This document shows positions 11,295 through 37,649 of a DNA stretch of 64,000 bases, piece by piece. The DNA is from Escherichia coli. GTDB lineage: Bacteria > Pseudomonadota > Gammaproteobacteria > Enterobacterales > Enterobacteriaceae. Both the position numbers and the translations under genes were made by a program. How positions within the stretch are numbered: position 1 is the first letter of the stretch; every line of letters begins with the position of its first letter. The DNA is taken from assembly GCF_045037415.1 (NCBI RefSeq), contig NZ_CP173438.1; one strand, written 5' to 3'. Below the pieces are notes generated by a model, which worked only from the letters and a program-made list of their open reading frames with translations, was not told the DNA's origin and searched no databases.

Positions 11295-12104
11295 CTAATT
11301 CGGGCGCTCACAAAGTGGGGCTAAATATTCATATAACGTTGCTGACGAAAAGGAGACATCGCCACAGGCACGTACGGGCATCACTGGCATTAACGCATTA
11401 CAAATAACCATCTCATCTGCCTGCAACGCCTCTTCCAGAGAGGCTTGCACTTCGACAAGCTGATAAGAGGATTGTGCCAGCAAACGGATACAGAATTGTC
11501 GCATAATGCCGTTAACACCTGCCTGATCCAGTCGCGGCGTATAAACTACGTTGCCCTTCCGCCAGAACAAATTAGCCGCACAGCATTCCGTAACCCACCC
11601 TTCGCTGTCAAGGACCAGCGCCTCATCAGCGTTTGTCTGCTCAAGATGAGAGCGGATCAATACTTGCTCAAGCCGATTAAGATGTTTAATACCTGCAAGA
11701 TGAGGATTGCGCCCCAGCCGCACCGGGCTTAGCGCCAACGTCATCCCTTCGTTACGCAAACGGTCGTAATGTGCAGGATAAGCCGTAACGGAGAGAATCC
11801 GCGTTGCCGGTCCACTGTTCAATGTGCTGTACCCTCGCCCGCCACTACCGCGACTGATCACGACTTTCAGTACACCATTTTGCTGTTCTGCTGCCAGCGT
11901 TTTCATCTCTTGTTCAAGCTGAGGCCAGAAGTCACAGGAAATCATCAACCGCTGACAAGCATCCTGTAGTCGCTGGATATGCGCCGATAACAAACTGACT
12001 TTACCGTCGATAACTCTGGCGGTGGTAAAACAACCATCACCAAACTGCGTTGCCCGATCGCTTACTGCCAGCGATTCCTGCTTATGACCGTTAATTAAGA
12101 ACAT
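11295..12104 (-). CDS. pabC: aminodeoxychorismate lyase
   Basis: 269 aa [31 protein letters not shown]...; class IV aminotransferase fold; synteny. Confidence 0.92.
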
Positions 12105-27039: not shown

Positions 27040-27080
27040 AGCCTTCAATTACAGAGTATTATCGGCAGCGACCCGCCGGA
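27040..27080 (-). promoter_or_regulatory. candidate sigma-28 (class 3) promoter of flgKL
   Basis: GCCGATAA -10 element on the minus strand (plus-strand ttatcggc at 27049-27056) just upstream of flgK; the -35 match is weaker. Confidence 0.45.
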
Positions 27081-27090
27081 CTTGAGTTAT

Positions 27091-28032
27091 TCAGAACAGA
27101 TTATCAATGTTCATGCTGTAGGTTTTGCTCACCTTGTCGCTTATCGATTTCATCTGCTGAATCATGTTGGTGAGTTTGCGGGCATAGTGAGGATCGGTGG
27201 CATAGCCCGCGTCCTGTAGGGCCTGCGCCCCCTGCTCCGCACTCGCGGCGGTCGTCACGGCGGCGTAGCGCGGGTTACGCGTTAACAGCCCAACGTAATC
27301 CGACAATGCTTCCAGATACGAGCTGTAGACCCGAAACTTCGCTTTTACTTTCTTCGCTTCGCCATTTTCATATTCAGTCGTGGTGATTTCAGTGACTGGC
27401 CCTTTCCAGTTGCCAGAGGCTTTGACACCAAACAGGTTATAGCTCGGCTCGCCGTTTTCACGGCGGATTTGCCGTTGTCCCCAGCCAGATTCCAGCGCCG
27501 CCTGAGCGAGGATCAAATGATGTGGCACACCACTTTGCTGGCTTGCCAGTTGGGCGGGCAGCGAGAGTTGCGCGAGGAATGCTTTACTGTCACCCGGCAG
27601 CGAATCATCGTAGTTACGTGGTACGGCCTTTTGCACCAGCTGCGAAAGCGTCTGATTTTGATAACGCACCACGGTTTCGAGCGGGAATTTTATCGGTGCT
27701 GCTGGCGTGGACTCCTCTGGCAATGGTTGTTCTGGCGTCATCTGTTTAACCATCATCTCTGCCAGCCCCAGACCTTTGCCCGCCGTCATCTGTTGGGCAA
27801 TCTGCTGGTCATACATACTGGTATACAGGCGAGTGTGCTCGCTGCTGAACAGGCCATCTTTTGGTAAAGCGTCGCGCATGCTTTTCAACATCATCTGCAC
27901 GAACATCCCTTCCACCTGGCGGGCCACCGGACGGATATTTGCCGCTGGATCTTCGCCCGCTTTCGCCTTTAGTTCGTTGAGTGATTGCGCATCCCAGGCC
28001 GCACTTGCCAGTAGTTTGCTGTCGCTGATCAT
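27091..28032 (-). CDS. flgJ: flagellar rod-assembly protein / peptidoglycan hydrolase
   Basis: ORF with [26 protein letters not shown]... start (ATG 28030-28032, 313 aa) and C-terminal glucosaminidase domain. Confidence 0.93.
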   Translation of the reverse strand: MISDSKLLASAAWDAQSLNELKAKAGEDPAANIRPVARQVEGMFVQMMLKSMRDALPKDGLFSSEHTRLYTSMYDQQIAQQMTAGKGLGLAEMMVKQMTPEQPLPEESTPAAPIKFPLETVVRYQNQTLSQLVQKAVPRNYDDSLPGDSKAFLAQLSLPAQLASQQSGVPHHLILAQAALESGWGQRQIRRENGEPSYNLFGVKASGNWKGPVTEITTTEYENGEAKKVKAKFRVYSSYLEALSDYVGLLTRNPRYAAVTTAASAEQGAQALQDAGYATDPHYARKLTNMIQQMKSISDKVSKTYSMNIDNLF

Positions 28033-33966: not shown

Positions 33967-34383
33967 TTAATTTCCGCTCTGTAAAACGTTCATCATGCCT
34001 TTAATTTGCCCGCTCAACGCGCTAAGGCTCATCTGGTATTGCAGGCTGTTATCGGCAAACTGGGTGCGTTCGCGATCCATATCGACAGTATTACCGTCAA
34101 GCGAAGGCTGGTCCGGAATACGGTATTGCAGTTCTGCGGAAGGAGGCGTCAGCGCCTGCGCCGGAATGTGTTGCGTTGAGGTCATCGTCAGAGCAACCAC
34201 ACTGGTTGCATCCCGTCCACGTTGCATGACTTTTTTAAGTTCACTGGCAAAATCGATATCGCGCGCCTGATAACCAGGGGTATCGGCATTGGCGATGTTT
34301 GCTGCCAGCACTTCCTGACGCTGGGCGCGCAGATTGAGCGCCTCTTGTTGAAAACGTAAGGCGGCGTCGAGCTTATCGAGCAT
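33967..34383 (-). CDS. flgB: flagellar proximal rod protein
   Basis: 138 aa [48 protein letters not shown]... Confidence 0.96.
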
Positions 34384-34537
34384 ATCTCCTCCGCAGGTAT
34401 CAAAATTCTGCCATCAGCTTAAATGCCTTTACGCGCGCGTTATCGGCGGAATAAACGCAAAATGGGTCGCTATTTATGCCGTTGATGGTCATTGCGGACA
34501 GGTACAATTCACGTTGTAGAAATGGCTGGGGGCGAAA
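34384..34537. promoter_or_regulatory. divergent flgB / flgA promoter region (FlhDC-dependent class 2 promoters expected)
   Basis: 154 bp gap between divergently oriented flgB and flgA; contains a GCCGATAA-like element reading toward flgB (plus-strand ttatcggc near 34440). Confidence 0.6.
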
Positions 34538-35197
34538 ATGCTGACAATAAAACGTAGCGTGGCGATCATCGCGATACTCTTCAGTCCGTTAAGTACGGCG
34601 AGCAATCTCACATCGCAATTGCACAACTTTTTTAGCGCCCAACTCGCGGGGGTAAGTGATGAGGTTCGTGTTTCTATTCGTACAGCGCCCAATCTGCTAC
34701 CGCCGTGCGAGCAGCCATTGCTTTCGATGAGCAATAATTCCCGCCTGTGGGGCAATGTGAATGTGTTGGCACGCTGCGGTAACGACAAACGATATTTACA
34801 GGTTAATGTACAGGCCACAGGAAATTATGTGGTTGCCGCGATGCCCATTGTGCGTGGAGGAAAGCTGGAAGCTGGCAATGTCAAACTGAAACGCGGACGG
34901 CTGGATACCTTGCCACCGCGTACGGTGCTGGATATCAATCAACTTGTTGATGCCGTTAGCCTGCGCGATCTATCACCCGATCAACCTATCCAGTTAACCC
35001 ACTTTCGCCAGGCATGGCGGGTAAAAGCGGGACAACGCGTCAACGTTATCGCCAGCGGTGATGGGTTTAGCGCCAACGCAGAAGGTCAGGCGCTGAACAA
35101 TGCAGCCGTCGCACAGAATGCGCGGGTGCGCATGATATCGGGACAAGTGGTCAGCGGCGTTGTTGATGCAGATGGGAATATTCTTATAAACCTGTAA
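34538..35197 (+). CDS. flgA: flagellar P-ring assembly chaperone
   Basis: 219 aa ORF MLTIKRSVAIIAILFSPLSTASNLTSQ... with signal peptide. Confidence 0.93.
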   Translation: MLTIKRSVAIIAILFSPLSTASNLTSQLHNFFSAQLAGVSDEVRVSIRTAPNLLPPCEQPLLSMSNNSRLWGNVNVLARCGNDKRYLQVNVQATGNYVVAAMPIVRGGKLEAGNVKLKRGRLDTLPPRTVLDINQLVDAVSLRDLSPDQPIQLTHFRQAWRVKAGQRVNVIASGDGFSANAEGQALNNAAVAQNARVRMISGQVVSGVVDADGNILINL

Positions 35198-35202
35198 GCT
35201 GT

Positions 35203-35229
35203 TAAAGATTACCCGTCCCTTGCCGATAA
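35203..35229 (+). promoter_or_regulatory. sigma-28 (class 3) promoter of flgMN
   Basis: TAAAGATT (35203-35210) - 11 nt - GCCGATAA (35222-35229): near-perfect match to TAAAGTTT-N11-GCCGATAA, about 45 bp upstream of flgM. Confidence 0.8.
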
Positions 35230-35272
35230 ATAAGCAACACATGATAAAAGCGCCCTCAATGAGGAATAAACC

Positions 35273-35566
35273 ATGAGTATTGATCGCACTTCGCCTCTGA
35301 AGCCAGTAAGCACCGTTCAACCGCGCGAAACCACTGACGCGCCGGTAACAAACACCCGAGCGGCAAAAACAACAGCCTCCACCAGCACCAGTGTGACGTT
35401 AAGCGACGCGCAAGCAAAACTGATGCAACCCGGCAGCAGTGATATCAATCTTGAACGTGTCGAAGCGTTAAAGCTGGCGATTCGTAACGGTGAACTAAAA
35501 ATGGACACTGGCAAAATTGCCGATGCGCTGATCAACGAAGCGCAGCAAGACTTGCAGAGTAATTGA
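35273..35566 (+). CDS. flgM: anti-sigma-28 factor
   Basis: 97 aa [39 protein letters not shown]... Confidence 0.96.
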
Positions 35567-35570
35567 TCGT

Positions 35571-35987
35571 ATGACGCGTCTTGCAGAGATCCTCGACCAG
35601 ATGTCCGCTGTGCTTAACGATCTCAAAACGGTAATGGATCAAGAGCAGCAACATCTCTCTATGGGGCAGATCAACGGCAGCCAGTTGCAATGGATTACAG
35701 AACAAAAAAGCTCACTGCTGGCGACGCTGGATTACCTCGAACAGTTACGCAGGAAAGAACCCAATACAGCAAATAGCGTTGATATTAGTCAACGCTGGCA
35801 GGAAATTGCTGTGAAAACGCAGCAACTACGCCAAATGAATCAACATAACGGCTGGTTACTGGAAGGACAGATTGAGCGCAATCAACAGGCGCTGGAAATG
35901 TTGAAACCGCATCAGGAACCGACGCTGTATGGGGCGAACGGTCAGACCTCAACCCCCTATCGCGGCAGTAAAAAGATTTCGATCTGA
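35571..35987 (+). CDS. flgN: flagellar export chaperone for FlgK/FlgL
   Basis: 138 aa ORF MTRLAEILDQMSAVLNDLKTVMDQEQQHLSMGQ... Confidence 0.95.
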   Translation: MTRLAEILDQMSAVLNDLKTVMDQEQQHLSMGQINGSQLQWITEQKSSLLATLDYLEQLRRKEPNTANSVDISQRWQEIAVKTQQLRQMNQHNGWLLEGQIERNQQALEMLKPHQEPTLYGANGQTSTPYRGSKKISI

Positions 35988-35997
35988 AGATTATCTC

Positions 35998-36018
35998 CGG
36001 CCTGCACTGCAGGCCGGA
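35998..36018. terminator. inverted repeat between convergent flgN and murJ
   Basis: ccggcctgcactgcaggccgg, a perfect GC-rich palindrome in a 39 bp convergent gap; no clear U-run. Confidence 0.55.
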
Positions 36019-36026
36019 ATGTATCG

Positions 36027-37649
<1,623 letters not shown>

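Follow-up and report, generated by a model that had tools for sequence, protein, structure and literature searches.

The motif at positions 35203-35229 of the window (the whole 64,000-nucleotide stretch of DNA that was analysed) is almost certainly the class 3 (FliA/sigma-28) promoter of the Escherichia coli flgMN operon, a core component of the flagellar checkpoint. Both this promoter and its regulatory reading are already known and are textbook material, and the finding is in that respect an ordinary one: the role of the promoter was established decades ago in Salmonella and E. coli, a genome-wide map followed in 2014, and the sequence of another E. coli genome adds nothing to either. What the present analysis contributes is a corrected position, in which the promoter is intergenic and adjoins the flgA stop codon, together with a quantitative picture of its conservation in about 100 species. 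An AT-rich tract upstream of the -35 element is the sole mildly new point, and here the sequence evidence is suggestive. The motif, its strength, its identity with the published ChIP site, its conservation and its position were established here, while the feedback logic, the occupancy of the site by FliA and the dependence on FliA are taken from the literature.

The core promoter and its recognition by FliA

The -35 element TAAAGATT (35203-35210) agrees with the consensus octamer TAAAGTTT at seven of eight positions and is followed, after the 11-nt spacer ACCCGTCCCTT (35211-35221), by the -10 element GCCGATAA (35222-35229), which agrees at all eight positions including the CGA core. Over both octamers the match to the sigma-28 consensus as quoted in the literature, TAAAGTTT-N11-GCCGATAA, is therefore 15 of 16. 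All three elements lie on the + strand, as does flgM, whose ATG (35273) is separated from the end of the -10 octamer by 43 nt. An earlier sequence-only reading of this DNA had described a near-consensus sigma-28 motif about 45 bp upstream of flgM; the motif was borne out in its exact coordinates, its match and its strand, and the distance was a fair estimate. When the 64 kb were searched with the consensus pattern, allowing up to three mismatches, two sites only were returned, the flgM promoter (one mismatch) and the flgKL promoter (three mismatches). With equal base frequencies assumed, the 16-position pattern with no more than one mismatch is expected by chance about 0.0015 times per 128,000 positions.

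The same reading had proposed a scan with a FliA position weight matrix as a check, and this was carried out with a matrix built from 23 published FliA ChIP-seq sites from which both sites of the window had been left out. The flgM promoter scored 27.1 bits (the -35 part giving 10.8 bits and the -10 part 14.5), which is the top score of the window, with the next 9 bits lower, and it ranks second by matrix score among all 52 published FliA sites. In 200 shuffled windows the maximum score per 64 kb was 14.7 +/- 2.0 bits and the largest was 22.6, so that none reached the score of the flgM promoter.

Three other candidate FliA sites in the window were considered and rejected. Two matrix hits of about 18 bits each, TCAACAAT...GCCGATGAC on the minus strand at 1350-1377 and TACAGAAT...GCCGTTAAC on the + strand at 11489-11516, fall within the range of the shuffle maxima, are absent from the FliA ChIP list and are likely to be chance matches. 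The third, a perfect sigma-28-type -10 element, GCCGATAAC, is found at 34439-34447 in the region between the divergent genes flgA and flgB, on the minus strand and directed toward flgB. It is unaccompanied by a -35 element (the -35 part scores -1.0 bits and the total is 10.9), just four of 92 relatives carry the exact octamer and the site coincides with no published FliA peak. This element probably belongs to the class 2 promoter region rather than forming a FliA promoter.

The window is E. coli chromosome, and of 5426 complete genomes 5425 contain the 1.8-kb region around the promoter. Binding of FliA has been demonstrated in MG1655, where the 28-mer TAAAGATTACCCGTCCCTTGCCGATAAA was reported as the FliA ChIP-seq motif for flgMN, with a fold-above-threshold value of 48 and a peak centred 25 nt downstream of the motif (Fitzgerald et al., 2014; PMC4183435). 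That study gives 1129409 in NC_000913.2 as the centre of the motif, which maps by way of locus L001 to position 35216 of the window, and this agreement validates the coordinate offset that was used to place the FlhDC peak discussed below. The same study showed that overexpression of fliA in a flhD deletion restores flgM expression (PMC4183435).

Two sources of flgM transcript

The start of the class 3 transcript can be placed from the description of a reporter. A flgM::gfp fusion given as ‘nucleotides +1 to 105’ ends after codon 23 (PMC7549644), which implies a 5' UTR of 36 nt, hence a start at A35237 on the + strand and a gap of 7 nt from the -10 octamer to +1. From the arithmetic of this one construct A35237, some 7-8 nt past the -10 octamer, is the most likely start, and it agrees with the earlier suggestion that transcription begins about 7 nt after GCCGATAA. 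In the accessible part of an E. coli Cappable-seq supplement no class 3 5' end of flgM is present at the expected coordinates of either MG1655 version; the culture used was probably non-motile. The 5' UTR so defined (35237-35272, + strand) contains a Shine-Dalgarno sequence, GAGGA, at 35261-35265. Its folding is no more stable than that of shuffled sequences (z = +1.1), which gives no indication of a regulatory RNA structure in the leader, and no match to an Rfam family was found in 34000-36500. Post-transcriptional control by OmrA/B has been described and is directed at the first flgM codons, not at the promoter.

Downstream of the leader lie flgM itself, encoding the anti-sigma-28 factor of 97 aa (35273-35566, + strand; TIGR03824, E = 7e-20, and RefSeq annotation), and flgN, which encodes the export chaperone of FlgK and FlgL and is co-transcribed with flgM (35571-35987, + strand; NF012003, E = 8.9e-84). 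Beyond flgN, and convergent with it, murJ ends at 36027 on the minus strand, while flgB, flgC and flgD lie to the left of flgA in divergent orientation; these neighbours were identified by NCBIfam models and RefSeq annotation. Between flgN (stop codon 35985-35987) and murJ there is a GC-rich inverted repeat, CCGGCCTGCA-C-TGCAGGCCGG, at 35997-36017. The repeat is a candidate bidirectional terminator; it is without a clear T-run and was not called by the terminator scan.

A second supply of flgM transcript comes from further upstream. The divergent flgA/flgB control region (34384-34537) contains the class 2 (FlhDC, sigma-70) promoter of flgA and carries an FlhDC ChIP peak; the published peak for flgAMN/flgBCDEFGHIJ falls at about position 34473 of the window (PMC4183435). 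The terminator scan found no + strand terminator-like site in 34300-36100 and hence none between flgA and flgM. Competing sigma-70 promoters and terminators were also sought near the site, and their consensus-level matches occurred at chance frequency, with none on the + strand between the two genes. With flgA upstream on the same strand and no terminator intervening, the locus has the arrangement of a dual class 2 and class 3 operon, flgAMN/flgMN. These overlapping operons are backed by ChIP-seq and RNA-seq (PMC4183435), and the two-promoter arrangement of flgM and its negative feedback are treated in reviews and modelling papers. The sequence-only reading had proposed both that the anti-sigma factor is transcribed by the very sigma factor which it inhibits and that read-through from flgA adds a class 2 contribution. 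The first of these is correct and established in the literature; the second is likewise correct, given the published overlapping operons and the lack of a terminator between the genes.

The known regulatory logic fits these elements as follows. RNA polymerase carrying FliA binds TAAAGATT at -35 and GCCGATAA at -10, held apart by the fixed 11-nt spacer, and transcription, most likely from A35237, yields a flgM-flgN mRNA with its 36-nt leader. Since FlgM binds and inactivates FliA, the promoter closes a negative feedback loop in which FliA activity is self-limiting. On completion of the hook-basal body FlgM is exported and FliA freed, and the freed FliA then transcribes the late genes and at the same time replenishes FlgM and the chaperone FlgN. 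Earlier in assembly, the source of flgM transcript is read-through that starts at the FlhDC-dependent promoter of flgA.

The relative size of the two contributions has been reported differently in different studies. It could be argued that the site binds FliA holoenzyme and yet contributes little flgM expression in E. coli: class 2 read-through would then account for most of the flgMN transcript, and the class 3 promoter would become important only under particular circumstances, for example during flagellar repair or when FliA is high. In motile MG1655, under one laboratory condition, deletion of fliA lowered flgM RNA from 451 to 318, a change that was not significant, and deletion of flhD caused a far larger drop in the dual-regulated genes; the authors attribute most transcription under their conditions to the FlhDC-dependent promoters (PMC4183435). 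An array study, however, found that flgM fell 6.9-fold when fliA was deleted and rose 2.0-fold with FliA induction (PMC1935009), and in E. coli reporter work the class 2 signal was near background and the class 3 promoter was treated as the main source. For Salmonella, the class 3 share is reported to be about 80% of flgM transcription. The near-perfect consensus and the strict conservation described below also argue for strong selection on the promoter. A minor role of the class 3 promoter in E. coli is on this evidence rather unlikely. The class 3 share of flgM expression is nonetheless condition-dependent, as the small effect of the fliA deletion in one condition indicates, and the identity of the element as the class 3 promoter is unaffected by this.

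Position beside flgA and conservation in the Enterobacterales

The sequence-only reading had located the promoter inside the 3' end of flgA, and this is refuted by the reading frame. The flgA gene (219 aa; 34538-35197, + strand), recognised as an ORF, by an NCBIfam model and in the RefSeq annotation, ends with a TAA stop codon at 35195-35197, leaving a gap of 5 nt before the -35 element. The entire core promoter thus lies within the 75-bp spacer between flgA and flgM. The -35 and -10 elements overlap no annotated ORF and do not form an intragenic FliA promoter, and in RefSeq E. coli (5425 genomes) the spacer contains no annotated feature. The overlap with the last flgA codons is confined to the AT-rich DNA that precedes the -35 element.

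To place the promoter in a wider context, species-representative genomes were scanned with a pattern for the FlgM N-terminus, MSIDRT.PL.PV, that is independent of the promoter. The scan returned 120 loci of which 119 are true flgM starts, in genera that include Escherichia, Salmonella, Citrobacter, Enterobacter, Cedecea, Buttiauxella, Kosakonia, Leclercia, Pantoea, Erwinia, Brenneria and Yersinia. The sole match that is not flgM (locus L058) is a 17-aa ORF in an archaeon, Haloterrigena salina, and is due to chance; a single such match in 120 shows the pattern to be specific. Counts of conservation refer to the 97 other Enterobacterales loci with sufficient upstream sequence.

Between the flgA stop codon and the -35 element there are 4-6 nt in 84 of the 97 relatives, both Salmonella loci among them, 15-31 nt in a further 11 and 132 nt in one, with one locus having no callable flgA stop. 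The stretch that separates the -10 octamer from the flgM ATG varies far more. It measures 43 nt in Escherichia and about 60 nt in the majority of Enterobacteriaceae; Pantoea and Erwinia have about 71-74 nt here, and Brenneria and most Yersinia have 96-121 nt. The flgM leader accordingly ranges from 36 to about 115 nt over the relatives. As the junction of the promoter with flgA is fixed, changes in length gather only in the leader.

These distances bear directly on whether the promoter should be regarded as intragenic, that is, as embedded in the coding end of flgA with coding and promoter constraints both shaping its sequence. The DNA just 5' of the -35 element is AT-rich, at synonymous sites too, and spans the last flgA codons and the stop codon, and in Entomohabitans (L049), the only such locus, the -35 element overlaps the flgA stop codon by 3 nt. 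Against this, the frame of flgA closes before the -35 element begins, the spacer is free of annotated features in 5425 genomes, and the -35 element follows the stop at 4-6 nt in most relatives and farther away in 11 more. In addition, the ChIP-seq study sets the names of intragenic FliA sites in parentheses and lists this one, without parentheses, simply as ‘flgMN’, giving it as intergenic (PMC4183435). An intragenic promoter is therefore very improbable, and the core promoter is best described as intergenic and adjoining the flgA stop.

The AT-rich DNA in front of the -35 element forms a 22-nt tract (35179-35200, + strand) that takes in roughly the last six flgA codons and the stop codon. It is 73% AT in the window and, on the assumption that transcription starts at 35237, would extend from about -58 to -37, the usual place of an UP element. 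Over 98 loci the tract averages 74% AT vs 41% in the body of flgA, and in the median locus no 22-mer from the flgA body equals it in AT-richness. The bias extends to synonymous positions: third codon positions are AT with a frequency of 0.63 in the last seven flgA codons and 0.36 in the preceding 150, and of the isoleucine codons at the end of flgA 189 are ATT or ATA and three are ATC. The ends of two control genes show a smaller shift in third-position AT from body to tail, from 0.40 to 0.50 in flgM and from 0.39 to 0.47 in flgN. It is conceivable, though we hold it only tentatively, that the upstream part of the promoter reaches into flgA in this way and that the tract is a UP-like element contacted by the alpha subunit of RNA polymerase; these figures are to be read with the caveats that the C-terminal peptide GNILINL is itself conserved and that the species are related. 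If this were the case, selection for coding and selection for promoter function would act together on the 3' end of a class 2 gene, and nested class 3 promoters would repeatedly use the fixed junction of stop codon and -35 element as a design.

Conservation of the core promoter itself is close to complete. A FliA site was found in the 200 nt before flgM at 97/97 loci, with scores of 17.1-27.8 bits, while the maximum in control windows of the same size, taken inside flgA or on the opposite strand (n=686), was 16.9 bits. An alignment of 92 distinct sequences on the site shows 99-100% conservation of TAAAG and GCCGAT. Information averages 1.64 bits over the -35 octamer and 1.80 over the -10 octamer, compared with 0.59 in the spacer and 0.47-0.63 in the flanks. 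The spacer keeps its length of 11 nt in all 97 relatives and is free in sequence except for its last T, which is 99% conserved. Variability of the spacer between two conserved octamers serves as an internal control, and points to selection on the two elements specifically. Within E. coli, the complete 75-bp flgA-flgM spacer is identical in 5181 of 5425 genomes.

A fortuitous match of AT-rich DNA that does not act as a promoter can be ruled out, for although consensus matches do arise by chance, as the two sub-threshold hits of about 18 bits in the window illustrate, the flgM site exceeds the highest of the 200 shuffle maxima by its score, is occupied by FliA in vivo (PMC4183435) and is invariant over 92 distinct orthologous sequences in which the adjoining bases vary.

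Comparison with known FliA promoters

The promoter of the window is that of MG1655. The 75-bp spacer of the MG1655 flgMN promoter is the same base for base, the 28-mer included, and the flanking genes and distances are also the same; the window differs from MG1655 just at a few synonymous-type positions within flgA, none of them in the promoter.

In Salmonella enterica, PflgM has the same -35 element, TAAAGATT, placed 5 nt after the flgA stop, with an 11-nt spacer and the GCCGAT core, and the dual class 2 and class 3 logic is common to this promoter and E. coli flgMN. Salmonella PflgM was used for the genetic dissection of the class 3 consensus, and its -35 positions are reported to be mutationally important; the CGA core of the -10 element is also cited as critical. 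Salmonella subspecies arizonae and diarizonae differ from E. coli at two points: the -10 octamer ends GCCGATGA, vs GCCGATAA in E. coli, and 59 nt in place of 43 separate it from the ATG, making the leader 16 nt longer.

The promoter of the E. coli tar-tap-cheRBYZ operon, TAAAGTTT-N11-GCCGATAA, which was the consensus promoter used for cryo-EM, has the same architecture and spacer length as that of flgM and scores slightly higher with the matrix (27.9 vs 27.1 bits). The two differ in their regulation, tar being purely class 3, with an expression of 0 in a fliA deletion, whereas flgMN is also fed by class 2 read-through (PMC4183435).

The second FliA promoter of the window, the class 3 promoter of flgKL (TCAAGTCC-N11-GCCGATAA; 27058-27085, minus strand), is a published FliA ChIP-seq site and scores 16.4 bits. 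It shares its -10 element with the flgM promoter and is likewise dually fed by read-through, but its -35 element, TCAAGTCC, is much weaker. This -35 element begins 5 nt beyond the flgJ stop codon (27091-27093), which is the geometry of the flgA/flgM junction, and the gap from the flgJ stop to the flgKL -35 element is 5-8 nt in all ten of the loci in which flgK was captured, the window included.
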